A stretch of 64,000 bases of DNA from the NCBI RefSeq assembly GCF_004010195.1, contig NC_057751.1, positions 14,665,951-14,729,950 of the forward strand, written 5' to 3'. The notes beneath the pieces were generated by a model, which saw nothing but the letters and a program-made list of their open reading frames with translations, ran no database searches and was not told the origin of the DNA. Origin of the DNA: Chiloscyllium plagiosum (lineage: Eukaryota). The position numbers were made by a program, and so were the translations under genes. Of the stretch, positions 2,728 through 59,654 are shown piece after piece (the stretch's first letter is position 1; every line of letters begins with the position of its first letter).

Positions 2728-3620
2728 GTGAGTAAATGATGAAAAAAATCTAAGGAACTACAGACGCTGGAAATCAGAAGCAGAAATAGCTCCAAAACCT
2801 GAGCAGACCTGGCAGCATCTGCGGAGAAATGATCCCGGAACTCCAACTCTGCTTTCTCTCCACAGATGCTGCCAGGGCTTCTCAGATTTTCCAGCCATTT
2901 GTGTTTTTCTTTGTGGTGAAGTGATGAACTTGGCTGTGACAGGGTCCCGATCACCAACCCTCTCTGAACTGCTCCTGAATTGTGCTCAGTTGGCGCAGCA
3001 TTGGCATCAATGATATGGGCGGGTCCGCAGACACACTGCAGGGCTGAGGGCAAGTCAGGACATGCCTGTGACAGAACGAAAGGGGAAGGAGACTGTAAAA
3101 TCTCAACTTTCACAAGCTGTCAGCTCATGATTTGAGAAGCAGCAGCTTTCCACCATTCTCTTTTGGTTTGCAACTCTGGTCAGGTTTCATTGGGACAGAG
3201 GTGCTGCAATGTTCACACTGGGCCCATTGCAAGGGCTGATGTTACCGACATAGCAACGAGAAACAAGTGTTGACCTGTTGAGCCTGTTCTGCCGTTCAAT
3301 AAGATCATGACTGATCAGATTTTCACCTCAGCTTGACATTCCTGCATCCCCGATCATTTTTCATCACTTTAAAAATATTTAAGGATTCTGGCTTTTGAAG
3401 AAGGGAGTTCTGAAGCCTCTGAACCCGTTGATAGAAAGAAAATGTGTCCTCAGTCCGGCCACCCCTTATTTTTAAACACCAACCCTGGGTCCTGGATGTC
3501 CCACTAAAAGGACGCGAGAGTGTGATGCTGGGAAAGCACAGGCAGCATCCGAGGAGCAGGAGAATCGACGTTTTGGACAAAAGCCCTTCATCAGGAATGG
3601 AAATCCTAGCAGTCTGGGAT

Positions 3621-3910
3621 GGCATGGTGTCTCAGTGGTTAGCACTGCTGCCTCGCAGTGCCAGGGACTTTGGTTCCATCCCTGCCTTGGGCAACAGTCT
3701 GTGTGGAGTTTGCACGTTCTCCCCATGTCTGCGTGGGTTTCCTCCCACAGTCCAAAGATGTGCAGGTTCGGTGAATTGGCCGTGCTAAATTGCATTCGTC
3801 GGGTAAATATAGGGTCGGGGAATGGGTCTGGGTGTGTCGCTCTTCAGAGGGTCGGTGTGGACTTGTTGGGCCAAATGGCCTGTTTCCATACTGTAGGGAA
3901 TCTAATCTTA
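3621..3910 (+). mobile_element. HE1-type tRNA-derived SINE
   Basis: tRNA-like head, TGTGTGGAGTTTGCAC...GGGTTTCCTCC core, LINE-like tail with AATCT repeats. Confidence 0.88.
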
Positions 3911-3913
3911 TTC

Positions 3914-3941
3914 CTGATGAAGGGCATTTGCCCGAAACGTC
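3914..3941 (+). ncRNA. Minimal hammerhead ribozyme core (Penelope-associated type), intact
   Basis: CTGATGA-A-GGGC-ATTT-GCCC-GAAA-C-GTC. Confidence 0.65.
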
Positions 3942-4494
3942 AATTCTCCTGCTCCCTGGACGCTGCCTGTGTTTGTCCAGCACCACACGCCCCACTCTAA
4001 TCTCCAGCATCTGCACTCCTCACTTTTGCCACTAAAAAGAAATGTCCTTTCAACATCTAACCAGTTGAGTCCCATCTGGATCTTCGGCATTTCAATTAAG
4101 TCACCTCTGGACTCTTCCAAATTCCAGAGGATACAGGCCTAGTCCGTCAAGCTAGTCCTCATGACGCAATCTGGGTATTGGTGTGGACTGTGGGGTTTAT
4201 GAGAATGAGGGATGCCCGTAAGTGTCTCAAGGCCAACTTGGAATGGGGAACAAAATGCTAGCAGCCAGTAATGCCCACATCCCACCAGTGAACGAAATTG
4301 TAGGTTTGATTCAAGGGGCATTAACATCAGCATGGCGGCTGGGCTGAGTGGCCTGGGCAATTTTTTACGAGTTGGTTCCATTGAAATAACGGAAGTTCTG
4401 ATAGGGCTTGATAACCTGGGTTTGAAGAGACATAACCTCAGTACCCTGAAATGTGGAGAGATGTCTTTGCTCAGAGGGTTGTGAATCTTGGACA

Positions 4495-5215: not shown

Positions 5216-5968
5216 CTGGTCAGGTTTGGTTCTGGTCATTCTCCACCCACGAAGTCTGATTAATGAGTACATTTGAGACATATCGATAGAAATGGGAAAA
5301 TCAGCTGGGCTGACGGAGTTGATGTTAGAGTTCAATCATGATCTTATTGAATGGCGTGGGGTGTGGTGAGAGAGGCCAGGTGACCCACTCCCAGTTGTGT
5401 TTCCTACACGCTGCCTACAGTTGCTGTACCGTTCTCATTACCTGATTGATTAAGTGTTGCAGAGACCACCATCACCACCAAAACCAACACGACCCCCACC
5501 CCCACCCACAAGGAGAACTAAATTTCCCCAATTCACAGCACTGCATCTATTTGCTGATCATCAGTTAATTCCTCTTCAATTCTGAATACATCCTAGGGTC
5601 CTCCAAAGCTCTTTTCCTAGGATCCCTTTGTCACAAAATGCGAAATGATCTTATGGACAGGGTATGAGGAGCGTCCCGGTGTTTTGTGCCAAGATGGTCT
5701 AATGTCTCAGGGTTCCGGACAGATCTGTAATAAACCGTATCCGAATTCCACAGAGATTTGCTTTCAACCTTCAGTAAGTCGGGTCATTATTGGCACAGAG
5801 GATGGCCATTCAGCCCCTCAAAATTCATGTTGGCTGTCTGTACAGCAATCTAGTCAGTCACGTTGCCCCACCTCTGAGAACTTGTTTACTGAAGTGCCTG
5901 TCCAATTGCCTGTTGAAATCGTCTCAGGAAGTGCTTCCTATTCAGTTATTGAGCGATCGAGTGAGAAA

Positions 5969-8034: not shown

Positions 8035-9407
8035 GTAAGCTTCTTGGTGATTTACTTTGTTGGGGTCTTGTGACTGATGAGTAATTTCTTTTCAGTTTCT
8101 CTTCAGTTCTCAGGTTTTAATCCTGATTTTTTTGCTGTATCCTCCTATGATTTTCACCCCTCTCTTATCCTGCTGATCAGGTCCTCTCTCTGATATGTGT
8201 GCTCCTCCAATTCTGGCCTCTTGAGTATCCCAAGTCTCTACAGCTCCACCATTGGTGGCCGTGTCTTCAGCTGACTTGCCTCCGAGCTCTGGAAATGCCT
8301 TCCTGCACCTCTCTAGCATCGTCTCTATTCTTTTTAAAACCTGCTTCTTTGACCAAACTATTTGTCACCTGTCCTGTTATCTCCCTTTGCGACTGGCTGG
8401 CGAAACTTCTCTGTTAAATTTTTCTGTGGGTATGCACTGGGCGAAAGGTGCGATATTGATGCAGTAGCTTGCGTTTGTCATTTGTCAGGCTCTGGTGAGC
8501 AGCCTGTTCACGGGCGGGTCAACGTTGGCTGGAGGGAGAGTTCTGGGGAGAATCAGGTCCCAACCCTCATGTGTATCTCTCCAGAGTTTAGCTGTACATC
8601 TCAACTGAGGTTTCTGCTGTTGCAAGGACAGGGTGTCACCAGTTTCCTGTGAGATATGAAGGTGCTGATTCACTCTGATATATCACCAGAACAGCCCTAG
8701 CAGACGTCACTGTCAGCTGTCACACGAGATAGGCAGACTACTGGATAGCGAACACATCTAAGCTTGGGTTGCTGTCGATCATACAGGGGTTGGCAGGTAC
8801 CTGGTTTGGATCCATTTGCCCAGACTGAACAGTCTCTGATCAAGTCCCTTCCCTTTGTGATTCTCCCTTAGCTTTGAGAATGGAGGTGACATGATGGTAA
8901 TGTCATTGACCGCAAACCCAGGGGCCTGGGCTCATGATCTGGGAAACAAAAACACAAACCCAGCAGGTCGGCAGCATCGGTGGAGAGAAAGCAGAATTAA
9001 CATTTCAAGTCCAGAACTAAGTTCTGAACTCGCAATTGTATGTAAGCTCACATCAGCACATCGGCTACTTGCTGAGGAACAGACAATCAAATACTGAAAC
9101 AATTATTTAAACTTTATGGCAAAATGTGACCAGACGAAGACCCCCAAGTCAGCAAGTTAAGCCTCACAAACCAACTTGGCTATTACCCATTAACGGTGGA
9201 ATTGAGCCATGATCCCAACTAACAGTGTCTGTCTCTGGGTGTGTCCAGGGTTCGACCCTTACGCAGCATTGTTCTCCAGAATTCTGCTGAAGAAGAATCC
9301 TGGAACTTGTGTCGTATTTTCTGACCTTCAAGCTTACGATGTGACATTCTTGGTGAAGCCCTCAAAAGTCTGGAGCTTATTTTCTTGTCAGGAGTAGTTT
9401 ATCAGTT

Positions 9408-16285: not shown

Positions 16286-16289
16286 CATC

Positions 16290-18320
16290 TATCTGAGGTA
16301 CTCCCTTCATAAGTTTCTATTTTCTATCAGATCCCCCCCCCCCCCTCATTTTTCTAAATTCCAATAAATATAATCCCAGTCTACTCAATATCTCCTCATA
16401 AACAAACCTCCTCAACCCCGGAATCAACCCAGTGAACCTCCTCTGCACCCCCTCCAGTGCCAGTACATTCTGTCTCAAGCAAGGAGACTAAAACTGTGTA
16501 CAGTACTCCAAATGTGACCTCACTAGCACCCTGTACAGTTGCAACATAAGTGCCCTGCTTTTAAACTCAATCCTTTTAGCAATGAAAGTCAGAATTGAAT
16601 TTGCCTTCCTAGTTACTTGTTGTGCCTGAAGACCAACCTTCTGTGATTCATGCACAAGGACATCCAGGTCCCTCCGCACAGCAGCATGCTACAATTCTTA
16701 CCATTCAAATAATAGTCCTTTGTACTGTTATTCCTACCAAAATGGACAACTTCATATTTATTAACATTGTACTCCATCTGTCAGACCCATACTCACTCAC
16801 TTAAATGATCTATGTCCCTTTGCAAAGTTTCACCGTCCTCTGCACTTTGCTCTGCCACTCATCTTAGCGTCACCTGCAAACATGTGGACCCCAACTCCAA
16901 ATCATCCCTGTAAATTGTCAGTAATTGCATTCCTAACACTGATCTCTGAGGCACACCAGTCGTCACTGAATGCCAATGCTTTTAGCTTCCTGTTGCTTAA
17001 CCAATCCTCTATTCGTGCTAATATAATACCTGTAACACCTTGCATCTTTATCTTATGTCGCAGCCTTTTGCGCGGCACCTTGTTGAATGCCTTTTGGCAA
17101 TCTAGGTACACCACATTTCCTGGGTCCCTGTTGTCCACCATGTTTGTAAGGTCTTTGTAGAATTCCAAAAGATTAGTTAAGCACGACTTGGCCTCATGAA
17201 CGCATGCAGTGTCTACCTGAGGGGATAATTTCTATCTAGATGCCTTCCTACTTCTTCTTTGATAATAGGTTCAAGTATTTTCTCCACCACAGAAGTTAAG
17301 ATAACTGGTCTATAATTCCCCATATTTGTCCACCTCCCTTGTTAAATAGTGGTGTCACAGTTGCTGTTTTCCAATTTTCTGGAATTGCCTCCGAGTCCAC
17401 TGAGTTTTGGGAAATTACTCTAAGTCATTTCTCCCGCCATCTCTTTTAACACCCTGGGATGCATTCTATCAGAGCCAGGAGACTTGTCTACTCCTAACTT
17501 GATCAACTTGCCCAACACTACCTCTTTCATAATAATGATTATTTTCAGGTCCTCACCTACCTTTGTCTCTTTGTCAATTACTGGCATGTTATTCGTGTCT
17601 TCCACTGTGAGGACTGACACAAAATACCTATTTGATGCCTCGACCATTTCCTCATATCCCATTACTAAATGCCCCTTCTCATTCTCGAAAGGACCAATGT
17701 CTACTTTAGCCACTCTTTTGTTGTTTGATATATTTGCACTGCCTTTACATTCTAAGCTAGCTTTTTTTCTCATGATCTATCTTACTTTTCTGTACAGCTC
17801 GTTTTGTGGCTTTCTGTTGACCTTTAAAGCTTTCCCAGTCTTCTAGTTTCCCACTGATCTTGGCCACTTTCTATGCTTTCTCTTTCAGTTTGATAGCCTC
17901 CCTTATTTCCTGAGACATCAGATTACCCCTTTTCCTACAGTCCTTCCTGTTCACTGGTATATTCTGTTCCTGAGCACTTTGAAAAATTGCTTTGAAAGTC
18001 CTCCACTGTTCTTCAACTGTCCCACCACAAAGTCTTTGCTTCCAGCCTACTTTAGCCAACTCCTCCCTCATCCTGTTGTGTTCTCCATTGTTTAAGCACA
18101 GGACCCTGGTATTGGATTATATCTTTGCACTTTCCATCTGTATTCTAAATTCAACCATACTGTGATCGCTCCTTCCAAGAAGATCTCTAATTATGACACC
18201 GTTAATTATTCCTATCTCAATGCAAAGGACCAGATCTGAGACCGCTTGCTCCCTTGGCAGTTCCATTATGTACTGTTCAAGAAAACTATCGCAGATGCAT
18301 TCAATGAACTCCTCCTTACT
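16290..18320 (-). mobile_element. CR1-clade LINE, degenerate ORF2/RT (3' end continues at ~15020-15640)
   Basis: DKSPGSDRMHPRVLKE, VVYLDCQKAFNKVP, RDLDVLVHES; many frameshifts. Confidence 0.9.
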
Positions 18321-18334
18321 TTGTTTCAAGGAGT

Positions 18335-19095
18335 AAAGAAATCTTGATTCTGTATCTAACTCTGTCCTGGGAGTGTTGGATGGAGACAGTGCAGAGGAAG
18401 CGTCACTCTGTATCTAACCCAGTGTTGTCATTCTCCTGGGAGTGTTTGATCGGGATAGTATCGAGGGAGTTGAGAGCGTGTTGCTGGAAAAGCACAGCAG
18501 GTCAGGCAGCATGATTCTGATGAAGAGCTCTGGCCCGAAACGTCGATTTTCCTGCTCCTCGGAGGCTGCCTGATTTGCTGTGCTTTTCCGGCAACACACT
18601 CTCAACTCTGATCTCCAGCATCTGCAGACCTCACTGTCTCCATGGTATCGAGGGAACTTTCCCTTCGATTTATAAGAGTCCAGAAAGCTTTACATTGTAT
18701 CTAACCCTGTGCTTTCCCTCTGCTCGAAGGAGACAGTGTCAAGAGAACATGACTTCCTTTATTAAAAATTAAGGGATGTTTATTTTGTATCTCGCCCCGT
18801 GTGTATCTGGCACTGTGCTGTCCTATCCTTGGAATATGTAATGGGGACAACATAGGAGGGCCTCACTTTCCATTTATTTTTGCTTTAATAGAGTAATATT
18901 TACTTTCAGTTTACAAGAGTATAGCGAGCTGTATTTACAAGTTAAAAGAGTACAGGGAGATTTACTTTCCATTTAAAGGAGTAGAGAGAGCCTTACTTTC
19001 AGGTTAAAAGAGTAGGGGGAGAATTACATTTGGTTTAAAAAAGTCGAAGTCGTTTTTCTCTGTGTCTAATATGGCACTGTCCCTGTCCTGAGAGT
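18335..19095. repeat. Degenerate array of the GGGACAGTGTAGAGGGAGCTTTACTCTGTATCTAACC repeat family (also at 1-70 on the - strand)
   Basis: Recurring TGTATCTAACC / GGGAGTGTT / CTTTACTTTC motifs. Confidence 0.6.
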
Positions 19096-19969
19096 GCATG
19101 CTGCTCACTCCTTTGTGATAATACTTTGTCCCTTTATGAGCTCACACTCACTCCTGTCCTTGAACACTGATGTCACTGTTCCACCCGGTTTATATTTGAT
19201 CTGGTCTGACAGTCTTGAGGCAGAGATCATGCTCATCCAACAGGACCATCAGTGAATGTGGTGAGTGCTCGGTTCAGGGATTAATGTCGGAAAAGGTGGG
19301 TCTGACGAGTCATGTGTGAAGTGTGTCCCAGCATGCTCTCATGCCTCACTGTAGTGAGCATTCTGAGTCTTCTCTTTGACAGTGGATGCTAAATTGGAGT
19401 GGTGCTGGAAAGGCACAGCAAGTCAGGCAGCGTCCGAGGGGCAGGAAAATTGACGTTTCGGGCAAAAGCCTTTCATCATGAATGAGGCTGGGAGCCTTGG
19501 GGTGGATTTATCTCTCCACCACTGAGGCTCTCAGCCTCATTCCTGATGAAGGGCTTATGCCCAAAATGTCGATTTTCCTGCTCCTCGGATGCTGCCTGAC
19601 CTGCTGTGCTTTTCCAGCAACACACTCTGAACTCTAATCTCCAGCACCTGCAGTCCTCACTTTCACCGAGCGAATGCTAAATGGTGCCTCCCAACTCTGG
19701 TATGCATCATCTGTGACTTTGCCCCCCCCCCCCCCCATCCATGCCTTAGTGACCACCCCACAGCATGTTGCACAAATCAATGGTGATCTCTTAAGTTTAG
19801 AAACATAGGACCGGGGTAAGCCACTTGGTCCCTCGATTCTGCTCCACCATTCAATGAGATCATGATTGAGCATCCGACTCTGCAAAGACTCTGTCTCCAC
19901 AGCTCTCTGTAACAAAGACTTCCAAAGACACTCAGACCTCAGGGAAGAATTGGTTACAAGATTGTCTCA

Positions 19970-22960: not shown

Positions 22961-24486
22961 CACAAATCTTGAATTAAGAGTCGAACAATGACTGTGAAAC
23001 CAATGTCAATTGTCAAAAGGAAAACATCTGGTTCGCTGATGTCCCTTAGGGAAGGAAACTGCTGCTCTTTCCTCGTGTGACTCCAGACTGACAGAAATGT
23101 GGTTGACTGTTAACTGTCCTCTCGGCAATAAATACTGCCATAGTCAGCGGTGTCCCACAAAAGAACTATCAAACTAAAACCTCAAAATCCCGAGACATGC
23201 AGTGCCATTCTCTCTCCCCGTCCTTTGGCTGTCTCGCACTGCTTTCTTTCTGTCTTTCCTGTCTGAACTTTCTCTCCATCTCCCTCAGCCCATGTGTGTC
23301 ACGTGTCACTCTGACTGTTTCACTTTTCTCCGTCTCGTTTTATCCATTGGTTCTGTGATGTCTCTCGGCCAGTCTCATTTCCAGGACTTTTTGTGCTGAC
23401 TTGCGGTGAGGTATTTGTGTGGGATGTAAGCGGGGAAGGGGTGGGGGAGTGCAGGTGTTACTCCAACTCAGCTGGCTTCACAGCTAACACAGGAGTTGAA
23501 GGGTCTCAAGCTGTAGGAGAGATTTTGACTTCATTTCCACAAGCAATTTTGAAGTACCAAGTAAAATGAAGACATTTCGGGTAAGTGTTGCTCTGGTCCC
23601 ATTCAACTAAATGAACCTTTGTAATGACCTCCCTCTGTTTGATGTGGAGGTGCTGGTGTTGGGCTGAGATGGACAAAGTTAAAAATCACACAACACCAGG
23701 TTATAGCCCAACAGGTTTAATTGTAAGTACTAGCTTTCCGAGTGCTGCTCCTTCATCAGGTAGCTGTGGAACAGGATCAAAAATGCACAGAATTTATAGC
23801 AAATGACCACAGGAACATGCAACTGAAACGATATATTGAATAAACCGACATTGCCGTTAAGTTAATGAGTTTTGAGAAGATTTGTAGCTCAAGTTGAGGT
23901 TCTAGATGTAGGTTTGCTCGCTGAGCTGGAAGGTTCATTTCCAGATGTTTCGTCACCATACTAGGTAACATCATCAGTGAGCCTCCAGACGAAGCACTGC
24001 TGATGTTTCCTGCTTTCTATTTATATGTTTGGGGATCTTTGGGTTGGTGATGCCATTTCCTGTAGAACCCAACATATAAATAGAAGGCAGAAAAGATCAG
24101 CCGTGCTTCATCCGGAGACTCACTGATGGTGTTACCTAGAATAGTGACGAAACATCTGGAAATGAACCTTCCAGTTCAGCGAGCAAACCTACATCCATTG
24201 CTGTTAAGTCTTTGATCTTTTAGAATGGGTTGCAGGTTTTGGCTCATTGAAGTGTAAAACCTAGAACTTCTTTCAAGTCACATACTCGAGATAACAAAAG
24301 GTAACAAAGGACGCCACCTTTTTTAATAAAGTTATCTCGAGAATGTGACTTGAAAGAAGCTCTGGGATTAACATATTAATGAACCGACACTTGTTACCCA
24401 CTCTAAAAGAGGAAAGATTTTACAGAAATCTAAGTTTGTTCAATACATCATTTCAGTTGCAGGACACTGTGATCTTTTGCTATAAA

Positions 24487-24775
24487 TTAGATTAGATTCC
24501 CGACAGTATGGAAACAAGCCCTTCAGCCCAACAAGTCCATACTGACCCTCCGAAGAGTAACCCACCCAGACCCATTTGCCTCTGACTAATGCATTGAACA
24601 CTATGGGCAATTTAGCATGGCTGACCAGCACATCTTTGGACTATGGGAGGAAACCCACGTAGACATGGAGAGAATGTGCAAACTCCACACAGTCAGTCGC
24701 CCGAGGATGGAATTAAACCCAGGTCCCTGGCACTGTGAGACAGCAGAGCTAACCACTGAACCACTGTGCCACCCC
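24487..24775 (-). mobile_element. HE1-type SINE
   Basis: Reverse complement of the consensus. Confidence 0.87.
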
Positions 24776-24804
24776 AACATCTAATGATCCTGTTCCACAG
24801 CTAC

Positions 24805-24833
24805 CTGATGAAGGAGCAGTGCTCCGAAAGCTA
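24805..24833 (+). ncRNA. Minimal hammerhead ribozyme core, second family, intact
   Basis: CTGATGA-A-GGAGC-AGT-GCTCC-GAAA-G-CTA; TAC/GTG can form a short helix I. Confidence 0.6.
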
Positions 24834-25009
24834 GTGCTTCCAAATTAACCTGTTGGACTATAACCTGGTGTTATGTGATTTTTAACTTTATCCCCCCTCT
24901 CTTTGGCAAACTTGTCATTAATCTTTATTGATACCTGCCCAGATTTTGTAGTCTTTTTGAAAACGGTTTTGTTTCGATAACTCTGTTTAATTATCACATC
25001 AAAAGACAC

Positions 25010-37975: not shown

Positions 37976-39104
37976 CCCAAAAGGCTGTGAATGCTCAGTT
38001 TTTGAGCATGTTTAAGGTTGACATTAATTGATTTCTGATCACTATCGGTGTACAGGGTTATGGCGATCGGGTGGGCCACCAGTTGAACAGCAGGAAGAGG
38101 TCAATGGGCTGAATGGCCCTCCTCCTGTTCCTTCCTGGGAAGGTTGTGGGGCTGGAGGGGATTACAGAGAAAGGGAGGGGAGTTTTTGAGCAAGGGAGGG
38201 GAAGATTTGAAAAAAAGAATTTTAAACCCTCATTGAGTCTCAGCCTCCGTCTTTTCAATGATTTTCCTGCGCTTTTGTCCTGTCTTGTTGTCAAGATTCT
38301 GAGGCAGACAGGGGGGTTGGACGTGGAGTATCTCCTCGGATCTTGTGAAAACCGTGAGTCGACGTCTTGCTCAAATGTCCTTTGCTTTCCCCCATTCTTT
38401 TGACTATCCCTATCCTTGTAACTTCTGCATCGCATCGAGCCTCTTCTGTTGATATTTTTCTGAAACGCACAGGTCTGCCAACTTTTTTGGAAGGCGACCC
38501 CTTCCACTTCAATTGTCATTCTCACTTTCTTCCCCACCCCCAAAGTGTTCCTTCCAAATATCAAATTAACTCCCCCCCCCCCCGGACTCCCCAAAGACTG
38601 TCCCCCACCGACAAGGCCCAAGTCAGGAGGGTGTGAGGGAATACCCCTCACTTGCCCTGGATGGGCGGGGGGGGGGGCAGCTCCAACAACACTCGAGAAG
38701 CTCGACACCATCCAGGGTTCAAGCAGCCCCCAGTTGATTGTCCCCACACCCCCACTCCCTCCACCATGCTGCTCAGTAGCAGCAGTGTGTACCCTCTACA
38801 CGATGCACTGCAGCAACTCCCCAAGCCTTCTCAGACAGCACCTTCCAAACTTTGAATGCTTCTGATAAAGGGCTTACGCCCGAAACGTCGATTCTCCTGC
38901 TCCTCAGATGCTGCCTGCCCTGCTGTGCTTTTCCAGCAGCACTCTAATCTGGACTCTGATCTCCAGTACTTTCTCAAACCTTGAACAATGTACTTTTACA
39001 GGCCACTCGAGCCTGTTCCAGCATTGTGCAAGATCACAGCTGGTCTGAACTCTAATGTCTTGCCTTTCCCCACCACTGACCCTCACTAATAAATAAGCAG
39101 GATG

Positions 39105-39417: not shown

Positions 39418-42400
39418 CAGAGTGGGGGAAGCGATGTCGATCTCCAAACTGCCGGGGATGTGAATGAATCAGACAGGCAGTCCCCGTCCGTCGTCAACCA
39501 GAGCGCTGCAGACGCTGTGTGAGGGAGGGAAGTGGATGAGGCAACTGGAAAGCAGGCAGAGTGCTGACCTTTTGAACCGGGCAGCTGAGTCAATGGTGCT
39601 GTGCAGAGAGGACGATTACCACAATACGGTAAGTACAGTGTCAACAGCTGACATGGAAACCGCTCCCATTTCAAAGAAATAAATGTGGGGGTGAGATGTG
39701 GGGGGGGGGGGGAGCTTTCCACGGATTGAGCAAGCCGTTTGCGTCACCGTCACCTTTGCAGAAGTCTTTCCTCAGTCAGCCCGGCTCCCTTCGCCGGAGA
39801 GATCGAGAACAGCCTTTATCTTGATGGGACGTGACGACGCTCATGGGAGATGGTGTAACTCCCAATGACGTAACCGAATTACAGTACGTGACTGAGACAT
39901 GAGTGAAGGAGAAGGCAACAATATGGAATGAGCATGTTGAAGGGGCGGGGGAGGAGAAAGAGATTCTTCGACATTGCCTCAGAGAGCTGCATTTGGCTAC
40001 CTGTCGTGTGTCGTTGGAAGTCAAGGAGTGCTGCAATCTAACTCCTGAAGTCCAACTGTAAACTGTTGCAGGGGAAATCACCGTCCCTCGGGGTCAGAGG
40101 TGGGGTTCAGCGACTGTACTGTACAAAGAAATCCTGGAGCTCCAGGGAGAGAAAGACACCAACAGGGCAGAGGTCAGCTCTCGACCCGGAGCACATATCA
40201 AGACCCTTTTAGACATTTTGTGATATAATGGGTCAGCCATGAGCTTATAGTCTCTGTAACATGGTTTGTTTATTGAAAACGTTGCAGAATCGTTGATAGT
40301 TTCGATGCAGTCATTGTCAGTTCCAGCGCAGCCTTTGTTAATATCAAAGGTGTTGGCTGGACCCAGACACTTCGGAGGGCAGTGTACGTTACTCTCCCCC
40401 ACCGCCTTAAACTAATCAATGAGGTTGTGAGCACATTGTGCTGGCATTCTGGTGGCCCCAAGCATTATCTGTGTTTGCTCTGCTTTCTCGCTCCAACCGG
40501 CGGCCATCTTGTGTGTCAAGTGGCCAACTGTTGGCTCAGCGGCCATCTTATGTGCCTAGTGTCACCCTGCCATGTGCCATCTCCCACTTCAAAACCTACT
40601 TGTACTTCCTACAAGGTCAATATATCCTTCCTCAGCGTGGTGCCCAGATCTGCTCCCAGTGCTTCCAAGAGCATTCGAATCAGGATTGTGAGCATCGAAA
40701 GAGTCCCTGCTTGTATTCTAGTCCTCTCGACTGGCTTACTTGATTATTTTTGTACCTGTTTATGGCACTTCAAGATTCTGTACAGCTGAACGTTCAGTCT
40801 CTTTGGACATTTTCAATATCAGCTCGGACATTTTTTTTCACTGGAGCATAGGAGGGTGAGGAGGAGCCATATGTAGGTTTAAAAAATAATGAGGGGCATT
40901 GATAAGTTGGATGGCAGGCGTCTTTTCCCTTTGATGGGGGGGGTTTCACGACTCGGGGAGTTACTTTTAAGAGAAGAACATTTTTTAAAAAGACATGACT
41001 GCAATTTCTTTGTGTGTTACCCCCCCACCCCCTCAACTCCCATCGTAATCCTTGGTGTCCCGTCTTCACAAAGTCAAGTTACTGCACACTTCCCCGAACC
41101 GCCTTGACCCACCCCCTCCTCACACAGCCCAGATTGTGGAGGGATGGACACCCCTCTGCCACAATCCAATTTCTGGGGAGGGCGATGGAAGGGGAACACC
41201 TCTCTTTGAGCCCCCGAGGTCTCCAAGAAAAGGCTGTCCAAATCGTCTCCTTCATCCAATCCTGGATGCAGATTCAGTACTGTGGACTCTGCACTCTGCG
41301 ACTTGACCTGGCAGGGTCATCCCAAACGTTGGTTCCTTTTGAGCCCGGCAGTTCCCCGGGGTTGGCCAACACGCCTTGGGCCTGTCTTCAAACTGGGCTG
41401 CAAACTCCACACAGACAGGCGCCCGAGGGCGGAATCGAACCCAGGTACCTGGCGCTGTGAGGCATGCAATGCTAACCACTGAGCCCCCCGTGCTGCCCCA
41501 CTGCTCACAGACTTTGACCCGCACCGTTCTGAAGCAGGGTCACCGCACCCAAAACGTGAGCTCTGCTGCTGCTCGACCTGCTGAGATTGTGTATTCATTT
41601 CTGATTTGCCTGAGACAGTTTCTTGACAGCGATTGGGAGAGAGCTCCGAGTTGCTGTTCTGTTCAGTGTCAGATATTCTGTCCTCAATTTGCCTGCCAGT
41701 CGGTATTAAATTTAATCCAACATTTGTTCAGCCTGTTTGCACCAGGATTTAGATCTAATCAGTGACAGTGACCTATTTGCGTGCTCTCAAATTTAGCAAG
41801 CTTCCAAACAGTTCCTGCAGCGACAATTCCACAGAGTCTTCCAGAGGTTTTCTGCTGGCTCAGATTAGTTAGAAAACAGCGCGATTCCTTCACTGGGGGG
41901 AACAGAGTTCACATTTCAAGATTTTGATTGCCCTCGGAGCTGGGCTAAAGTCGAGACGCGACAGGTTTGAGGAGGGAACAACGGACAGGAGATACCGAGT
42001 GACAAGAGACCAGAGAGCGGAGGTTGGGGGCAAGACAATAGCAAGGTGTGCAGTGAGCCGCAGGGACGCTTGTCTGAAAGGGGGAGAAACAAGAAGCTGA
42101 GCAAAGGAAACAGACGTGAAAATCAGTGTCGAGTCTGAAAGGCTGCTGAGTGGCTGACTGAAGGATGATGGAGCTGCTCCTGAGGCCAATGTTCAGTTTC
42201 ACTGGGATACTGCAGCAGGCTGACGACAGAGGCATGTCAGTGTGAGAGCGAGGCAGAGACTTCAAACCACAGGCCAAGGAGGGCTCAGAATGGGACAAAA
42301 CAAGGGAATGCTCCCTTCAAAGGGGCTCGCGGGCAATCTTTCCCTCACTTGGCTGTGTTTGACACAAGCCCCAGAGCAGGCAAAGCCTGTTCACACAGGG

Positions 42401-44119
42401 GTCAGGAGGTGACAGCGGATTTGAACCAGCTCTCGCCAAACGTGGACTTCAATGTAGGACTGCGAAAGCAAGTCAAACAAGGAGCCCTCTGTCTCTCTCT
42501 GAGGACAAAGCCAATTGTGGAATTCTCAATGTTACCCTCCCCTACTGCTGACTCTCCACAAACCCAGGTTGGCGGGGTGAGGGTCAGACAATCGCTTGTT
42601 CAAACACCAACGCTGCTGAAAGGTGGGGAAATGACCAGTCGAGGTGTGGAATCATTGACTGGTCCCTGAAGCAGCAGCAGCAGAAACAATATTGATTTGA
42701 ACTCTACAGCAAGGTTCGATTGGAGGCCAGGCGCTGCGATTGGCTGCAAGGTGGTCAGCAGAGCTCAGGCATTTGGCATTTACAGCTCAGGCTGACCCCC
42801 TCCACCCAAGCGAGTGGCCCTGAACCCTGACTGAGGGAGGAGGCTTCATTGTCAGCTGCAGACTGCCATGAGGAAAAAGGCTGATTTGGACTCACCACCG
42901 CCAACTTTCCTTCCAATCCCCAAGAGGGCAAACAATTTATTACTCCCAGTCTGAAATATCCCGCACAATGGTGCATGAGGTATAGATTCACCCACCCAAC
43001 CTCTCCTCATGAAGAGACTCCCCCCCCCCCCCCCCCCCCCCCCTCTGCCCCTCCGCTCCCCCCCCCCCCCCATCTCATTCTGAGACTGTGCCTTCCCCCA
43101 CACCCCCATCCCTTAAACTCCAGCCAGGGGTAAACAATCCCTCTCAGTCGACCGCTTCACACGTCTCCCACATTTCACCTCTCACTCTGGCAAACATCAA
43201 ACCCAACTCACTCGGCCTCTCCACGACGACTAAACCCGCACCCCGCATCCCAGACACCAGGCATGACAGTCTTTGCTGCTTCCACTTAACGGCCCTGAAA
43301 GGGACAAGTCTGAAACCTCATGTGGAACACTGCTCCATAAGGAGACAGGACTCGAACTGCAGTCTCACCAAAGCCCCGCACAATTGTCGCAAGACATTTT
43401 CATCCATGTGCTCTCGGCACTTTGCAGTAAAGGTCAGCCCTGATGCGATTTATTACTGCCACATGTTCCCAACTACAGTGAAAAGTTTTGTTTTGCGTGC
43501 AGATCACACTAGACAAAAAAGTGCACGAGGGGAACTGAACCGAGCGAGGAATACAATGTTACTGCTGCAGAAAGCCTGTCACTCGGCTTCTGACTTGCTC
43601 ACTCTATCTTTGTACGACCTGTGAGCTCCTTGCTCGCTCACACCCAAGTCTCTCTAAACACGGACTTTTATACGTTTCAAAAACGTTCTGCATTTCCCAA
43701 AGTCCGTAACCTCACACTTCCCCTTCGGAGACTTGGCACTTTGCTGTCTCCTCGTTGAATCTCGGAGAAAGCGAGGGCTGCAGATGCTGAAGATCAGAGA
43801 GAGTGGTGCTGGAAAAGCACAGCCGGTCAGGCAGCATCTGAGGAGCAGGAGAATCGACGTTGATGAAGAGCTTTTGCCCGAAACATTGATGTTCCTGCTT
43901 CTCGGGTGCTGCCTGACCGGCTGTGCTTTTCCAGCGCCACACTCTCGACTCCTCATGGATTCTGTCGCTATCACTTTGCAGTGTCCTCCTGACGACTTAC
44001 ATATCGATCAAGCTTTGTCCCATCTGCAATCCATCACTGTCTGTTTCAGTGTCAATAGCTGAAGGCCTCCAGCACTGCTGTCCACGAGTATAAGATTATG
44101 AAAGGATTGGACACTCTGG

Positions 44120-44490
44120 CAGCAGGACAGTGGGCATGTGAGCAGGGCGCTGTGTTACAGTGAAGGTTGGGAACATGCTTGCGTACAGACTGGAGGTGTT
44201 CTGTAAAGCAGTCACCCAGTCTGCACTTGGTTTCTCGGATGTAGAATAGGCCACATTGGGACGAAGTATAGGTGAAATGCTGCTTCACCTGGAAAGACTG
44301 TTTAGGCCCTTGGATGGTGAGCAGGAAGCAGGTGAAGGGCTGGTGTTGCATCTTCTGTGGTTACATGGGAAGTGGTGGGGGTTGGGGGGAGGTGTTAATG
44401 GTTGAGGAACATACTTGGGTGTCCCAGAGGGAACAATGCAGACATGGAGAGTGAAGGCAAGGTATGTTTGGTGATGGTGTTCTGCTAGCA
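44120..44490 (-). mobile_element. Penelope-like element, degenerate GIY-YIG endonuclease fragment
   Basis: IQGPKQSFQVKQHFTYTSSQCGLFYIRETKCRLGDCFTEHLQSV; followed at 44493-44590 by an oppositely oriented degenerate hammerhead-bearing terminal repeat. Confidence 0.8.
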
Positions 44491-45785
44491 CTCTGATGAA
44501 GAGTCATTTAGACCTGAAATGTTAGCCCGCTCTCTCTCCATGGATGCCGCCCAGCCGGCTGTGATCCCCAGCATTTTCCGTTCTCAGTAAAGTCTCGTAC
44601 TTCATGATTAAAGGCAATAGAAACTATTCCAGCATCCCATTTACTTAGCTTCTTTACCGTAAGGCACCCAGTAACCTTGCAACATTGGTAAACTGGAACC
44701 AGCAGTCATAGAGCACAGGAACAGGCCCTTTGGCCTACAATGTCTGCTCCATGATGCTGTTTTAAACTAATCCAATCTGCCTGCTCATGGTCTGTATCCC
44801 TCTATTCCTTGCGTGCTTAAATGTCTATCTAAATGTCTTTTAAGAGTTGTATAGAGCTCTCAAAGATAGTGGAATCAAGGGTTATGGAGATAAGGCAGGA
44901 ACAGGATACTGATTAGGAATGATCAGCCATGATTATATTGAATGGCGGTGCAGGCTCGAAGGGCTGAATGGCCTACTTCTGCACCTATTGTCTATTGAGT
45001 TACAGCCTGCCAATGTGAAAGGACCCCATTTATGCCTCCTCTTGGTTTCTTGTCTATTAACCAAAGCTCTATCCATGTTAATATCTCACTCCCCAACTGC
45101 CAGCTTGCATATTACTCTGTTACAGAGTCTCACAGCACAGAAACAGACCCTCTGGTGCAGCCAATCCATGTTCATCATGATCCCAAATTAAACTAGTCCC
45201 ACCTGCCTGCTCCTGGCCCACATCCCACCAAACATTCCTTATTTGCATACTTATCCAAATGTCTCTCCCATGTTCTAACTGTACCCACATCCAGCAGCTC
45301 CTCAGACAGTTGATTCACACATGAACCACTCTCCGAGCAAAGTAAGTCGTGCCCCCCCGTCTTGTTAAAATCACTCTCCTCTTATCTTCAAAATATGCCC
45401 CTTTGTCTTGAAATCCCCCACCCGAGGGAAAAGACACCCACTGCTCGTCTTATTAATGCCCCCTCATGATTTCATAAACTCTACCAAGTCACCCCACAAC
45501 CCCCTAAACCCTAGCCTAACCAGCCTCTCCTTATAACTCAAACCCTTACGTGTGGCACCTTATCAAACATCCTTTTGGATGCCCTGCTTAGGGATAACAC
45601 CCACAAGCTACGACACAATCTCCCTTTGAGTTGGTCTGATCACATTATGATTTCCCCAAATGAATTGTTGAAATTTCCTCCACAACAAATCGATTCTTTC
45701 ACGTCGTACCGGGAATGAAGTTTGCTGCTATTTTCACCAGCCTGGCCAAAACAGAGCAAACGTGGTTGATTCTGAAACCGACGGC

Positions 45786-49974: not shown

Positions 49975-50695
49975 CTAACGAGAGAAACACCGTCGGATTA
50001 CAAAGTCGCCGAGGGGACTCAAAAACCTCGCCGCGGTGTCTGTTCTTCCGGACATTAACCCAACGGGGTGGGAAGTGAAGTCGTCAGCGTCAACACGAGA
50101 AAAGGCCATCAATCCTGGCTGAGCCGGGGCCTCAACTGCACACCATCCCACAGAGACCAGAATCCCACCCAAGTATCTCAGCCGTCAAGGACACAGAGTG
50201 ACCCACAACCCTCTGGGGGAGAGAAATCCTCAGGTTCAAAGGTCTCCGAGCAAGGACCTCTCTCCTCAGCTCGGTCCCACCCGGTGATCCGCTCGTTGAT
50301 CCCGAGACTGTGCCCCACCCCGTCCTCGATTTCCCCAGCCCCCCCCGGATGAACACTCAACCTCTCAGTGTTCATCCACACACGCAGCCCCTTCACCAGC
50401 TTGTCCATTTCGATGAGATCCCCACCCCTCCATCTCAACCCCAGTGATGACTGATTCCGACTTACTCAACCTCAACCCCTCTGGTCCTGAGGACTGACTC
50501 GGTCCGAGCTCTGCTGGATCACCCCACGCAGCTGGGATACGCTTCCTGACATCCGGACAGCAAAGCTCCAATAGCTTCTCCGACACAGCGCTCACCGCTC
50601 GGAGACGGGAGAGGCGTGGGAAGAGACGGTGGTCTCTTCCCTCGTTCAAAGAGGGTCGATATGGATTCAGGGGCTGGCCAGAGGAACACACTCAC

Positions 50696-50784
50696 CGGCT
50701 TTGGAGAAGTCCAACGCCTGCAGGTTGGGAGGCATGTGTTTCAGGGCCAAGCTCTTCAGGCAGGTCTCGCAGTTGGCCGCGTAC
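50696..50784 (-). CDS. GINS4: GINS4 coding exon 5
   Basis: YAANCETCLKSLALKHMPPNLQALDFSKA, AG/GT, phase 2-1. Confidence 0.96.
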
Positions 50785-52461
50785 CTGTGGGGCAGATCAG
50801 TTCAGTGAGGAAGGAGCAGCCTTCAAGACTCCCGTCCGCGCTCCTGCACCTCTGTCTGCAACCCAGTGGTGGGACATCGTTGCTACCAGCAGCCTGACTG
50901 CATCGCAATGCTAACCTGTCTCCAAGTGCAGTGAACCACAGTCTGTGTGCTGCATCCCCGACAAAGCGACTTCCTCCCCCTGCCCGGCACGTTCAATCAT
51001 TCCCTTCTCTGGATAATTATCCGTCGGAATGCAGATGCCGTTCCGCACCTCCCCCTCATTCAAAACGGTATCGTTGGCTTTTCCGTTCAATTTCAGCGAC
51101 AGGCTCAAAACCTGACCACCGAGGTCCTCTCCCACTCACAGCTCCCGATTTCAGTCACCCCAGGGATTCCTGATGAGGCACCCCAGCGAAGACAGGAAAA
51201 AAAAAAGCAGTTCCTCCCCAGAGGAACCTCGGGCAGTCACGTGGATTTGGAGCAATTTGGAATCCGAACAAAGATGGATGTTCCTGTCCGTGGCAGGAAG
51301 CAGGGAGAAGTCGGCACGCTCAGCCCAGAGTGGGAATGAATACGGATTTTCCCATCGACAGCAGGGAGGGATCGGCACGTGCTGACCCAGAATGGGAATG
51401 AGCAGGGATTTTCGTGCAGAAAGCAGGGAGCAATCAGCACGTTCTGACTGCTCAGTGGCCACAGTTATGAGGGCGTGTACTGTCCCTTTAAGAGAGAGTG
51501 AATTCTGTTCTGAACTGAGAGCTGAGAAGTACCTGTGTGACATGACTGGATGGCAGTCCCACAGTGGACTGGAAAACTGACAACATGTAGCATTTGGCTG
51601 AGAAATGGATACCCGAGCTTTGGTTGCTGTTTTGACATCAATTCCAACTTAACCAGTCGGTTTAAAATATGTCCCAGGATACTAAAACCCAAATGAGTTT
51701 GAATTTATCGTTTTGCCCACAGCGAACCAATGAGATGATCCGATGTCAGGGATATAAAAATGTGGACATTTTGAAAATTGGAGCGAGAGCAAATGCCGTT
51801 CAGACAGGGCGAGCCAACATCTTGTTCCACAACAAATTAGGAAACACTGTCTCTCAAAGGCACCTTTTCATATGAAACAAATCGCAGTAAAAAGAAAGAA
51901 GACGACCCAGGGAGATCTTCAGTCGGAAGACAGAAGACACAGAAAACGACAGCAGCTGTGTGGTTTTGAAATTAAGGTGATATAATTTGAATAAGTGTTT
52001 TACTGGAACAGCAAATTGTTAGAGAGTTGGAGGCAAGTAATAAGCAGTTAAGAGAAAGGGGCGGCTTAGTGTTGTGAATAGATGTTTAATGTTCACTTTT
52101 AGGGTTAAAAAATAAATTGATGTTATTGTAATTCAATAGTGGAATTTGGGAATTCTCTGTCACTCACATTTTAACAGATTACAAGGCAAAGTGAGCTTTT
52201 CAGGATGGTAACAGAGGAATTCTCCACAGACTGGAGAAAACAAATCTGGAACCTTCAGAACAGGTGAAACTCCACAGAAGGCCAGATACCTTTGTTGGAG
52301 CTGGGGTTGAAAGGAGTGAGATTGAATTCATTGCTGACCATTGCTCCCGCACCCACCCCAAACCGATCAACCTCAGTGTCAGTCGCTCCACCCGAAGATC
52401 CCACAGCTGTCGGCCTGTACTTTCGCCCCATCTCTCTCTCTCTTGCTCTCCATGCACTCAC

Positions 52462-53999: not shown

Positions 54000-54054
54000 G
54001 ACAACAAACGCCATTCACCCTTTCACATAGATGCTCAAGTGTACAGCAGAAGTT

Positions 54055-54082
54055 CTGATGAAGGGCTTTTGCCCGAAACGTC
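54055..54082 (+). ncRNA. Minimal hammerhead ribozyme core, intact
   Basis: CTGATGA-A-GGGC-TTTT-GCCC-GAAA-C-GTC; flanks GAAGTT/GATTTT can pair with G-U wobbles. Confidence 0.65.
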
Positions 54083-54329
54083 GATTTTCCTGCTCCTCAG
54101 ATGCTGCCTGACCTGCTGTGCTTTTCCAGCATCACTCTAATCTAGACCCTGGTTTCCAGCATCTGCAGTCCTCACTTTTGCCCACTGTTCAGTGGGCACA
54201 CTAACTCCACCATATCCAGTCACCTCCCCAGCACGCACGTCAACAAAGGTGAAATGGTGGCCTTAATGGATTGTGCACAGACTCACTGAGCTTTGCTCCC
54301 TCACAGGCTGAGGAATGAAACCTGTGTAC

Positions 54330-56408: not shown

Positions 56409-56560
56409 NNNNNNNNNNNNNNNNNNNNNNNNNNNNNNNNNNNNNNNNNNNNNNNNNNNNNNNNNNNNNNNNNNNNNNNNNNNNNNNNNNNNNNNNNNNN
56501 NNNNNNNNNNNNNNNNNNNNNNNNNNNNNNNNNNNNNNNNNNNNNNNNNNNNNNNNNNNN
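56409..56560. other. Assembly gap in GINS4 intron 1
   Basis: N run. Confidence 1.
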
Positions 56561-56735
56561 ACATCTACCCCCCCATCCAACCCCCCCTCCCCCAACCAGG
56601 GCAAGTGGGGTGTATTCCCTCACACACCCTCCTGACTTGGGCCTTGTTTCTGGGCTCTGGGGGGGGGGGGGGAAGGCTCATGCTCAGTGTGGGATCTTGC
56701 TGTGCACCCCCCCTCCCCAGGGGTTGACCCCTCAC

Positions 56736-56843
56736 CTCCTCCAGTTTCCCAATGAGCTCAGCCGGGGTCAGGATCATCTCCTCCTCCTCCTCGGGGTCCC
56801 CTCCACCCACCATCACCGCTTCCCCTGCCTCCTCTTCGGCCAT
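56736..56843 (-). CDS. GINS4: GINS complex subunit 4 (SLD5), coding exon 1
   Basis: MAEEEAGEAVMVGGGDPEEEEEMILTPAELIGKLEE|gtgag; LTPAELI motif of SLD5. Confidence 0.93.
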
Positions 56844-57280
56844 GCTCACTACCCGAGCCCCGAGGCTCCAACTGGAAACTCCCGCCTCGGCCGCGACGTC
56901 TGACGTCACCGCGCACAGGCCACGCCCACCTCCCCGAACGTCGACGCGAGAGGCGTCATCGCGCACCCCTCTCGTCCGACGGCACGCGCGGGTCGTCGGA
57001 CGTCATCGCGCACCCGCCCCGCCCCTTTCCTCCGTCCAGCCGCGCCCCCCTCGTCAGAGGGCACGCGCGGTTCTTCGGACGTCATCGCGCAGACTGGCAT
57101 CGCCGCGTCTCCGAGCCCCCTGTGACCAGTGCAATCGTGGCCATCTTTCTTCCAGGCGGAACGAGCAGCTCCTCCCAGCCTGAGCGCTCCGTTTCCCCTC
57201 AAGTGCTGTCAAACCTCACCACTTCCGTGTTGTGTTTTGTTTTGGCTCCTCCGATTTATTACGGCCCGGAGCGTGACCGA
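56844..57280 (-). promoter_or_regulatory. GINS4 CpG-island promoter/5' UTR
   Basis: CpG-dense; perfect CRE TGACGTCA at 56901-56908, GC boxes CCGCCCCGCCC near 57014, ETS-type ACTTCCG near 57220. Confidence 0.8.
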
Positions 57281-59654
57281 ATTGTGATAGAAAATAGATA
57301 GAAAATTGAACTGGACATCGCTTTTTTTTTTCCTTAACTAAAACATGAATGGGAAGGTCCTGGGGAGTGTTGCTGAACTGAGAGACCTTGCAATGCAGCT
57401 TTATATTTACTTGGAAGTGGAGTGGAACGCAGGTTGTGAAAAAGGTGTTTCGGATGTTTTCCTTCTTTGGTCGAATTAAAAATCACGCAAAACAAAGTTA
57501 CAGTCCTACAGGTTTACTGGGAAGCATTACTCCTTCAGCCGGGAGCGGTGGAGCTGAACCATAACACACAGAACTTACAGCAAAGGATGACAGTCTCATA
57601 GAACTGAGAGGATACATGGAACAAACCTGTGAAGTCTTTCATCTTTTAGAATGGGGTGCAGGTTTCGGTTCATTAATATGTAAAGCCCAGAACTACAGCT
57701 GACCCCCATGGCACTCCACACTCTCATAAACACATACTTAAATCCTAAAACACTCATGCAGATCCTATCTCCTAAGAACACATTCTCCAACCCCCGACAC
57801 ACACACCCTCTCACAGGCTTAAACTCCATCACACACACACACTCACTGTCTCTCTCGTGTACACATACACCGCTATACGTCTGTGGGGTGAATTTACACC
57901 TACAGAATTATATTTGCAGATACATTCTATTTTGTTCAAAAAGCACACACTCTGCAGGCAGTCAATCCATGTACTATCTTTTCAATTCCACTTTGAAAGT
58001 GGAACCAGTCTGACTCTAACCTCACACCTTTAATCCATTGTCTGAGCTAAGATATCACCTTTTTTTTCTATAAAACTTAAACTATCTTGAGAATGTAACA
58101 GTTGTAGGATTTTCATACGAATGAAACCTGCAACCCATGGCAGGGTAATTATGAGAACCTTTCCTCCTCAAGCAATCTGCCAACCTGAACATAACTGCCG
58201 CTCATTAAATGTGTCCAAATTTGACATTATTCCATAACGTAAATGGAGAAGTTAAAAGAATTACAGCAGAAAGTGCAGGCTGCAAGTTATGATCTGTAAT
58301 CTTAATTCTTAAGATGTCTGCTAATGCATGTACACATCCTGTATGTATTCATTTAATTCCCCTCTTCAATGTTTTAACACATCCACTTGCATTAAAACCT
58401 TATCCAAGTGGTTACTCACAAATTCCCAATGGGAATGTTGGATACAGGCTGACTGCCTCAGGCCAGTACCAACAAACATTGGACGGAAATTGAGAAGGGC
58501 AACTTTGAACGTAGAACATAGAAAAGTACAGCACAGATCAGGCCCTTTGGCCCACAATGTTGTGCCGAGATTTAATCATAATGTAAAACATAGTAACCTA
58601 ACCGATGCACCCCTCAACTCATTGCTATCCATGTGCATGTCCATCAGTCGCTTAAATGTCCCCAATGACTCTGCTTCCACCACGACAGCTCGCAATGCAT
58701 TCCATGCATTCGCAACTCACTGCATAAAGACAACTCTCTGCGTAAAACTTGGTGAATTGAGCGGACTGTCTCTGGCACTATGTGAAAAAAACATGATTTC
58801 TGTACAGTCACATTTATAGTTCACCATTTTTCTTAATGCTCACCTGTCCACTGTTACTGCAATAGTCAATATGAAAGGTGGAAATAAACCACAGAAAAGT
58901 AAAAGTCTGAACATGTCCAGCCCTTTGATAACATTATCATGGTCTTGCTGAAGACTTGCCAAATGCAAATTTGAAAAATAAATCCCCCATTGCTCCCTAT
59001 CCCTGTTCCCAGCATTTACCCAATCTTAGTTAGGGTCAAGAGTGTGGTGCTGGAAAAGCACAGTCAGTCAGGCAGCATCCCGAGCAGGAGAGACGACGTT
59101 TCGAGCAGAAGCTCTTCAGCAGGAATTCTCATCTCGAGCTTACGCCCGAAAGGTCAATTTTCCTGCTCCTCGGATGCTGCCTGACCGGCTGTGCTTTTCC
59201 AGCACCACTCTTTTGACGCTGATCTTCAGCATCTGCGGTCCTCACTTTCTCCCCAGTGTTCGTTAGGCTCAAGGTGGCTTTTAAATGCGAATTAAAATAT
59301 TATTTGGGAACCAAAAGAGTTCATCTTCATCTCGCTTTGGCTGTATTACAAAGCAACAATTTTGCCTAAGTCCCTGGCATTGTGGTCACGGATAAAGTGA
59401 TGATCATGCTTGCATGACCAGCTACCTAGTGCGTATGATCAATTTAACACATTCTTTTGTTAAGTATGGATTGAATGCTTATATCTCTTCAGACAGCCTA
59501 TCCTCCTCCCTCACTCGCCTTTGAATAGCACTTCACTGCTGCTTCGGCCTGTCTTTACAAGATCGGGGAAGGACTTTTTCCCCACCAGAGTTTGTCAGCA
59601 AACGTTGTCCTTCCTGTCCAATCAGGGATCAGTTTCTCAAGCATTTGCCTCACA

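Follow-up and report, generated by a model that had tools for sequence, protein, structure and literature searches.

Minimal hammerhead ribozymes are known from the Penelope-like terminal repeats (pLTRs) of metazoan Penelope-like elements (PLEs), where, in the available sections of the founding paper (PMC4209133), several families are described per genome, with most motifs solo and some paired on opposite strands. Here we analyze a 64,000-nucleotide stretch of the genome of the shark Chiloscyllium plagiosum (contig NC_057751.1, positions 14,665,951 to 14,729,950, forward strand; hereafter the window), in which short repeats assigned to families A to D carry hammerhead motifs of this kind, mostly as head-to-head inverted arms that we call fold-backs. 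Taken as a whole, our reading, which we hold to be highly probable, is that these repeats are old, dead-on-arrival insertions of the pLTR ends of several Penelope-like families, probably of Neptune type, primed from both nicked target strands, and that the minimal hammerhead is an ordinary pLTR motif carried along with them.

The closest described systems, as far as the available portions of the sources go, are the following. An insertion of an endonuclease-positive PLE consists of a pLTR, an inverted 5′-truncated copy, a one-sided tail of 30–40 bp and a target-site duplication (TSD) (PMC3846280, PMC8557442), the inverted copy and the tail being described also in PMC8969392. The enzyme of Poseidon PAc from Anolis carolinensis nicks and extends both strands and is predicted to form a protein dimer; the PAc hammerhead cuts only with the protein present, and the uncleaved RNA is the template, with no RNA-sequencing ends at the cut site (PMC11167929). 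Retrozymes of the non-LTR (non-long-terminal-repeat) type (PMC7229834; 10.64898/2026.07.22.740005) are short, non-coding, hammerhead-bearing elements that are related to PLE pLTRs and form head-to-tail tandems on one strand; the preprint among these sources (10.64898/2026.07.22.740005) samples one cartilaginous fish for tandem units.

The motifs in the window share with those of PMC4209133 the type-I core, an extra base before helix II, a G-C first pair and a loopless palindromic ACGU/AGCU helix III. That paper also describes a truncated element with a second, inverted motif at its 5′ end (legend to Fig. S4A), and helix II of the Acropora Neptune motif (Fig. S3) is nearly that of family A. Helix I, with 2–3 bp, lies at the short end of the published range. 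The ribozyme class is known, the host group is absent from the founding list (no cartilaginous fish among the 56 motifs listed in the sections available), and the copies described here are inert. The largest vertebrate counts in that paper are ~4,000 and 9,000, compared with 12 family A arms per 62.6 kb in the window.

Like the PLE insertion units of PMC3846280 and PMC8557442, the elements are head-to-head inverted repeats with a tail at one end, a TSD and, in one case (A3), a palindromic junction; unlike a full PLE insertion unit, they comprise the pLTR end only (110–330 bp), and their TSDs of ~12–16 bp compare with 8–10 bp in Adineta. PAc has the same layout in that its hammerhead lies ~100 nt upstream of two internal reverse transcriptase (RT) start sites that define the tail, but it belongs to another clade and its open reading frame (ORF) starts inside the hammerhead, whereas the sole ATG frame of family A closes after 17 codons (PMC11167929). 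In contrast to the tandem retrozymes, the elements here are solo or head-to-head.

Anatomy of the insertions

A BLAST comparison of the window with itself recovered 12 arms of family A, two arms each of families B and C, and a decayed further copy of C. The family A arms belong to seven insertions (A1 to A7; coordinates in Table 1), namely five fold-backs and two solos, while family C forms a fold-back of 1.25 kb that later received two insertions, the B fold-back and a repeat that we take to be a short interspersed nuclear element (SINE). An earlier note on this DNA had described a non-autonomous population resembling MITEs (miniature inverted-repeat transposable elements), mostly in inverted pairs. 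The pairing is borne out by 5/7 family A insertions together with B and C, and the lack of autonomy is trivially true, as the elements have no ORF.

We evaluated the TSDs with a score whose element boundaries were set by hand after inspection of the sequence, with the same 4-nt slack allowed in the null; as judged against 3000 random flank pairs, 9 of 11 elements reach p ≤ 0.01, with duplications of the length given above as read by eye. All five A fold-backs carry a tail of ~33 nt on exactly one arm, the other arm stopping short, and by eye the tail is one-sided in B and C as well (7/7 fold-backs of families A to C). The five A fold-backs have five different centres. Paired A arms are 80–86% identical and no more alike than random copies of the family (mean 85.5% over 64 arm pairs). 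A second organism has both A2 and A3 at the same locus; there are 25 differences over 817 nt, and the two insertions are therefore old.

Of the 12 arms of family A, none starts at the predicted cut site, and the window holds no same-strand tandem pair of hammerheads of any family. By these two observations the elements do not belong to the non-LTR retrozymes.

Hammerhead motifs and their covariation

A descriptor search of the window was run with strict settings (exact core, helix II of at least 4 bp and palindromic helix III; helix I not required). It found three minimal type-I hammerheads, all on the plus strand, with core position C3 at 3914, 24805 and 54055, whereas 300 dinucleotide shuffles gave a mean of 0.013 and a maximum of one. 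When one core change was permitted, the number rose to seven, among which the motif at 5564 looks like chance; the non-strict copies differ from the hammerhead criteria by one to three changes. The motifs show the CUGANGA core, the unpaired base 9.1, helix II, GAAA, a palindromic helix III and a UH site, and, as judged by sequence and layout, they belong to the minimal hammerhead class of PLEs.

Covariation between families was counted directly over 15 motifs, including one from a metagenome-collection contig (L001) described below. The first, second and third pairs of helix I are standard in 13, 14 and 8 of these motifs, the pair types differ among A, B, C, D and L001, and helices I and II covary between families, in agreement with the covariation that had been noted before.

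All motifs that had been reported for the window are present at or within 1–2 nt of the positions given for them, although on the minus strand C3 and cut-site positions had been mixed. The three copies that had been called intact (3914, 24805 and 54055) pass the strict descriptor, but the closing helix I pair of the 3914 copy is C-A and hence lost. Family B has its core motifs; its helix III, however, is ACAT in both arms (23944–23947 and 24153–24156) and non-palindromic, and its second core starts at 24123 instead of 24124, with A9 changed. The shared ACAT could be a family variant or the outcome of either parallel CpG decay or conversion between the arms. The two motifs that had been grouped as family D, at 44493 and 41529, both exist, but because both are damaged and BLAST of the window against itself gives no link between them at E ≤ 1e-3, family D is not established as a single family.

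An Rfam scan of the window returned ten matches at E ≤ 5 and no hammerhead; the matches were to hairpin microRNA models, fell on the fold-backs and were dismissed as chance. A separate terminal-repeat family, comprising a fold-back (2748–2912) and stubs at 8943–8998 and 25468–25509, has no recognizable hammerhead core.

Relation to Penelope-like elements

The peptide encoded at 63762–63998 matched 15 proteins in a representative protein library. Pfam, applied to seven of these, assigned GIY-YIG to five and, within those five, RVT_1 to two, all below the curated cut-offs; the long matching proteins carry a CX4CX2C linker. Five proteins searched back against the window matched two places only, 44130–44339 on the minus strand and 63849–63995 on the plus strand, with E-values down to 2.6e-17. 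The GIY-YIG remnants proposed earlier are thus real, and the proteins they match have the order RT, zinc finger, GIY-YIG. Among five proteins looked up, two (P0012 and P0015) are named from a stingray, in keeping with a cartilaginous-fish host. Traces of the linker are present in both remnants and the linker is intact in the matching proteins; it is of the CX2-5CxxC type that precedes GIY-YIG in the available descriptions of Neptune and Nematis. The window itself contains no RT.

The hammerhead at 44493 (plus strand) and the remnant on the minus strand are ~150 nt apart, in the layout of an inverted 5′ copy. L001 contains a decayed RT-GIY-YIG element (57–2335); a hammerhead follows the RT-endonuclease remnant at a distance of 586 nt, on the same strand, and has a helix I of 5 bp. 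The core of this hammerhead is identical to that of family A outside loop 2, the flanks are unrelated, and tblastn of the L001 frames against the window gave no match. L001 was the single locus found by a hammerhead pattern scan of the metagenome contigs, and the same scan found none in the viral contigs. The terminal-repeat layout, the TSDs in 9/11 elements and the endonuclease remnants uphold the Penelope origin that had been proposed: the elements derive from pLTRs.

Decay and folding of the ribozymes

We compared non-CpG mismatches to the column majority between ribozyme-critical sites (10/166) and downstream sites (37/555; Fisher p 0.86). The core alone has 3/85 mismatches, compared with 6.7% downstream. 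Ribozyme positions decay neutrally, like their flanks, with few enough sites that weak constraint is possible.

In folds of whole insertions, the probability of helix II is ~0 in A1, A2, A3, C and both B arms; A5 retains helix II in part, and for the solos A4 and A6 the probability is 0.85–1.0. The inverted arms thus bury the ribozyme, since the hairpin removes helix II, and no same-strand partner is available inside a fold-back because the two cores lie on opposite strands. For these two reasons, the proposal that the ribozymes act as dimers within the inverted pairs is not supported. Cofolding of four motifs gave no double-hammerhead fold, in a folding model that ignores the core.

A fixed 5′ edge in family A

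The stretch 18300–19720 was compared with two DNA runs and one RNA run; the figures below for loose ends and joints refer to the 18 of 1889 loose-end rows and the 15 of 1284 joints that were listed, and some rows or joints did not enter the counts. In the two DNA runs, 148,455 and 126,282 contigs were placed on this stretch, a count that includes an unrelated repeat, and the summed depth is ~1e7 on the A arms versus 10–50 in most of the unique flank, which does not amount to a copy number. The 3′ ends listed form two clusters, one at the tail end at 18641 (930 and 1045 contigs in the two runs) and one at the short end at 19624–19628 (2232 and 1928). The 5′ edge at 19539 is sharp (444 and 491 contigs; loose sequence median 255, agreement 0.30–0.31); among the rows listed, no other 5′ place has loose sequence that is both long and unrelated. 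C3 comes 4 nt downstream of the edge, and the first post-cut base 32 nt downstream. The 5′ row at 19576, where the loose sequence is short and alike (62–70 nt, 0.5), is an internal variant.

Six of the 15 listed joints reach 19539, from six different places, and in other genomic copies the inner end of one arm varies while the other arm begins at a fixed base. Two of the listed joints fall on 19571, the first post-cut base, and were rejected as evidence of cleavage because both fit a deletion between two GAT microhomologies; the joint from 19435 to 19571 is found on a single high-depth contig in both DNA runs.

Within the window, the arm starts read by hand are at −28, −28, −5, −4, −4, −3, −2, −2, +1, +8, +22 and +46 relative to C3. 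Seven of the 12 fall within 7 nt (P 0.0007), and the longer arm starts between −5 and +1 in six of the seven insertions (P 0.0004); both P values refer to a uniform range that we chose, and paired arms do not count as independent. An Initiator match, YYANWYY, has its A at the edge base; 3.7% of the A's in the window lie in such a match. Just upstream of the edge, both DNA runs give G as the loose-end consensus; the flanking sequence is A/T-rich, and A2 carries a single additional G at this place.

A strict rule for the 5′ end meets several counterexamples. Upstream of C3, A3 extends at least 17 nt, B ~55 nt and C >300 nt, and longer templates therefore exist. The loose-end consensus of the RNA run ends in T, and in that run 274 reads stop matching at 19535, just after a pyrimidine-rich CAG and 8 nt upstream of C3, a position that the top rows of the DNA runs do not include. 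Position 19535 might mark a 3′ splice site of the pLTR, like the one in Drosophila Penelope, or a single expressed locus might account for it. The RNA run placed 4250 reads on the stretch, 27 of them at ≥99% and none in the unique flank; the read ends did not pile up, a weak test because the library was made from fragmented poly(A) RNA.

Neither a fixed 5′ edge nor minimal-hammerhead stubs in sharks were reported in the literature that we searched, with Repbase, Dfam and subscription papers outside the search, and the available sections of PMC4209133 and PMC11167929 do not report such an edge. Initiator motifs upstream of the 56 published motifs, inspected by eye, were confounded with 3′ splice sites and were not used.

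Proposed mechanism and alternatives

We propose that an RT-GIY-YIG protein would nick both target strands ~12–16 nt apart and that each nick would prime reverse transcription inside the element RNA, either ~85–90 or 120–125 nt downstream of C3, with the gap between the two priming sites corresponding to the tail. A single complementary DNA (cDNA) would leave a solo stub, whereas two outward-pointing cDNAs joined at their inner ends would give a fold-back, made anew at each insertion. Priming at both nicks and head-to-head joining would together account for the TSDs, the one-sided tail and the unique centres. Selection on the ribozyme would act in active master elements and not at the loci in the window.

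Several observations weigh against pLTR-end insertion as a full account. Two of the 11 elements, A6 and the piece made of D and the endonuclease remnant, failed the TSD test. Pfam found no GIY-YIG or RT domain on three window peptides and five L001 peptides, and a word-seeded search for homologues gave 12 candidates, none significant. No full-length master was seen, and in the window families A, B and C lack an attached ORF; only their layout and motif link them to Penelope ORFs, and D alone touches an ORF remnant. The decay test is compatible with weak constraint, as noted above. Finally, random 5′ truncation alone leaves the sharp edge unexplained, and the edge also fits a short self-propagating master.

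Why the cDNAs stop at −4 is a point on which we are less sure. A cDNA would usually end 4 nt upstream of C3, most likely since the RNA begins there: the fixed 5′ edge lies on an Initiator-like A and not at the cut site, and we therefore suggest that the RNA starts at this base. Run-off at a capped start is our preferred explanation, with a stall or a trim nearly as likely. In its full form, which we offer tentatively and rate below an even chance, the capped-start model would run as follows: (i) family A RNA starts, with a cap, 4 nt before the core; (ii) priming ~90 or 125 nt into the RNA and run-off at the cap would produce a cDNA resembling a "strong-stop" product; and (iii) such a cDNA, if not transferred to the RNA's 3′ end, would be inserted as a stub, and two of them from a protein dimer would make a fold-back. 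The consensus G and the extra G of A2 at the edge are as expected from copying a cap.

If true, the capped-start model would explain the 2–3 bp helix I, the presence of 5′ transcript pieces at the 3′ end of PLE copies and the regeneration of the upstream pLTR. The ribozyme would then serve to process the 5′ end, removing the cap, and not to excise monomers, and the shark genome would document aborted PLE replication intermediates by the hundreds of thousands. For the study of PLE replication and of the role of the hammerhead, the value of these elements lies in their junction statistics: a stub-rich genome offers a natural sample, very large in size, of the sites where RT starts and stops, and with the fixed 5′ edge a model of start at the ribozyme and run-off at the cap becomes directly testable.

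The edge could also arise on a longer read-through RNA, with no transcription start at this place, if RT stalled at the folded ribozyme or a bound protein, or if the endonuclease trimmed at ATT. We regard this as a serious possibility, though short of probable. The edge falls together with the 5′ side of helix I, and its first bases are ATT, the preferred cut motif of the anole enzyme in the available sections of PMC11167929, and in Drosophila virilis, according to the accessible parts of PMC2377424 and PMC4209133, the start is far upstream, with an intron ending close to helix I. Against a stall or trim, the edge base is the A of an Initiator match, which few A's in the window have, and G precedes it in both DNA runs despite the A/T-rich flanks, with an extra G in A2.

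A further possibility, which we find rather doubtful, is that the family A solo stubs form a SINE-like non-autonomous family, in which a short self-transcribed master starting at −4 is copied by the Penelope protein and the inverted arm is added at insertion. The 19539 edge with its long unrelated upstream sequence in 444 and 491 contigs would fit such a master, as would the start of the longer arm at −5 to +1 in 6/7 window insertions, and the preprint on tandem retrozymes argues, in its available part, that these are non-autonomous PLE derivatives (10.64898/2026.07.22.740005). The upstream extensions of A3, B and C speak against a short master, as does the RNA run, in which no read reached the unique flanks. 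Run-off at a capped start and a short self-transcribed master could both hold.

That the fold-back is a MITE-like unit copied whole, with ribozymes acting as dimers, as the earlier note envisaged, is very improbable. Inverted pairs with TSDs in 5/7 A insertions and in B and C would fit it, as would the joint from 19435 to 19571 on one high-depth contig in both DNA runs. Yet each fold-back has its own centre and its own TSD, with no centre repeated among the five of family A; the ends are asymmetric, with the tail on one arm only; the joints vary across the genome, six of the 15 listed reaching 19539 from six places; helix II is lost in the folds of most fold-backs; and the high-depth joint is explained by the GAT microhomology deletion. 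The elements are accordingly not MITEs.

It is just as improbable that some copies are retained by the host as functional ribozymes or as hairpins with a regulatory role: the shared locus of A2 and A3 in a second organism and the occurrence of the family in poly(A) RNA (4250 reads) would be in keeping with host use, but decay is neutral with no excess similarity between arms, three motifs only pass the strict descriptor, the best of them (54055) is antisense to the surrounding GINS4 gene, and, in a weak test, read ends do not pile up.

Coordinates and other features of the window

Table 1. Hammerhead-bearing and related elements of the window (positions are those of the window; C3 denotes the core position).
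Feature	Position	Strand	Arms, core and state	TSD or protein match
A1 fold-back	3515..4030		minus arm 3517-3599 (C3 3594, no tail); plus arm 3910-4026 (C3 3914, tail); a later insertion, presumably a SINE, between the arms	3499-3512 / 4027-4040
A2 fold-back	18469..18641		minus arm 18467-18512, short, without hammerhead; one extra G; plus arm from 18514 (C3 18517, helix II damaged, tail)	18455-18468 / 18642-18655
A3 fold-back	19397..19668		minus arm 19399-19497 (C3 position 19479 changed); plus arm 19525-19667 (C3 19543, core damaged, tail); palindromic centre; both arms reach at least 17 nt upstream of C3	19381-19396 / 19669-19684
A4 solo	38858..38969	+	C3 38862, G8 changed, partial tail	38843-38856 / 38972-38985
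A5 fold-back	43763..43951		minus arm 43761-43861, tail, begins inside helix III; plus arm 43861-43951, begins at U4, no tail	43748-43762 / 43949-43963
A6 solo	54053..54183	+	best-kept core, C3 54055, predicted cut after 54082, tail; antisense within GINS4 gene region	not significant
A7 fold-back	59030..59252		minus arm 59030-59126 (C3 59122, damaged, no tail); plus arm from ~59136, begins at helix II, tail	~59017-59036 / 59250-59269
B fold-back, nested in C	23866..24197		minus arm 23905-24038 plus tail to 23866 (C3 23977); plus arm 24064-24195 (C3 24123)	~23849-23868 / 24196-24215
C fold-back	23640..24894		C3 23759 (minus, damaged); C3 24805 (plus, strict match); tail on left arm; matching pieces 23671-23779/24785-24893, 23791-23845/24434-24488, 24197-24295/24331-24429	23628-23641 / 24892-24905
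Decayed family C copy	57476..57694	-	absent from the earlier note	
Family D arm	44485..44575	+	C3 44493, imperfect helix II; inverted terminal repeat on the 5′ side of the minus-strand endonuclease remnant	
GIY-YIG remnant 1	44130..44339	-	zinc-finger linker and endonuclease; frameshifts, stop, deletions	55% identity to P0012, E 2.6e-17
GIY-YIG remnant 2	63849..63995	+	zinc-finger linker and endonuclease; runs off the window end	50% identity to P0002, E 2.4e-08
Hammerhead-like stub	41527..41580	+	C3 41529, heavily damaged	
Related terminal-repeat fold-back	2748..2912		arms 2778-2827 / 2857-2906; no recognizable core	weak

The labels SINE and CR1 for repeats are tentative. GINS4 (SLD5) is represented on the minus strand at 50694–50801 and ~56700–56850, with a match to solved structures at E 4.6e-07 for the exon and a weak match (E 0.96) for the likely first exon; A6 lies between these two places, in antisense orientation. 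At 63400–63640 on the minus strand, an exon-like frame has a weak Snf7 match (E 0.058) and no match among solved structures; it presumably resembles the C-terminus of CHMP7. Large arrays of a 33-nt minisatellite occupy 777–1938 and continue from 31492 onward, with more than 90 overlapping copies among those listed. The interval 26255–28689 is GC-rich; a 24-nt tandem repeat and an acidic tract underlie its open frames, which have 479 and 605 codons.

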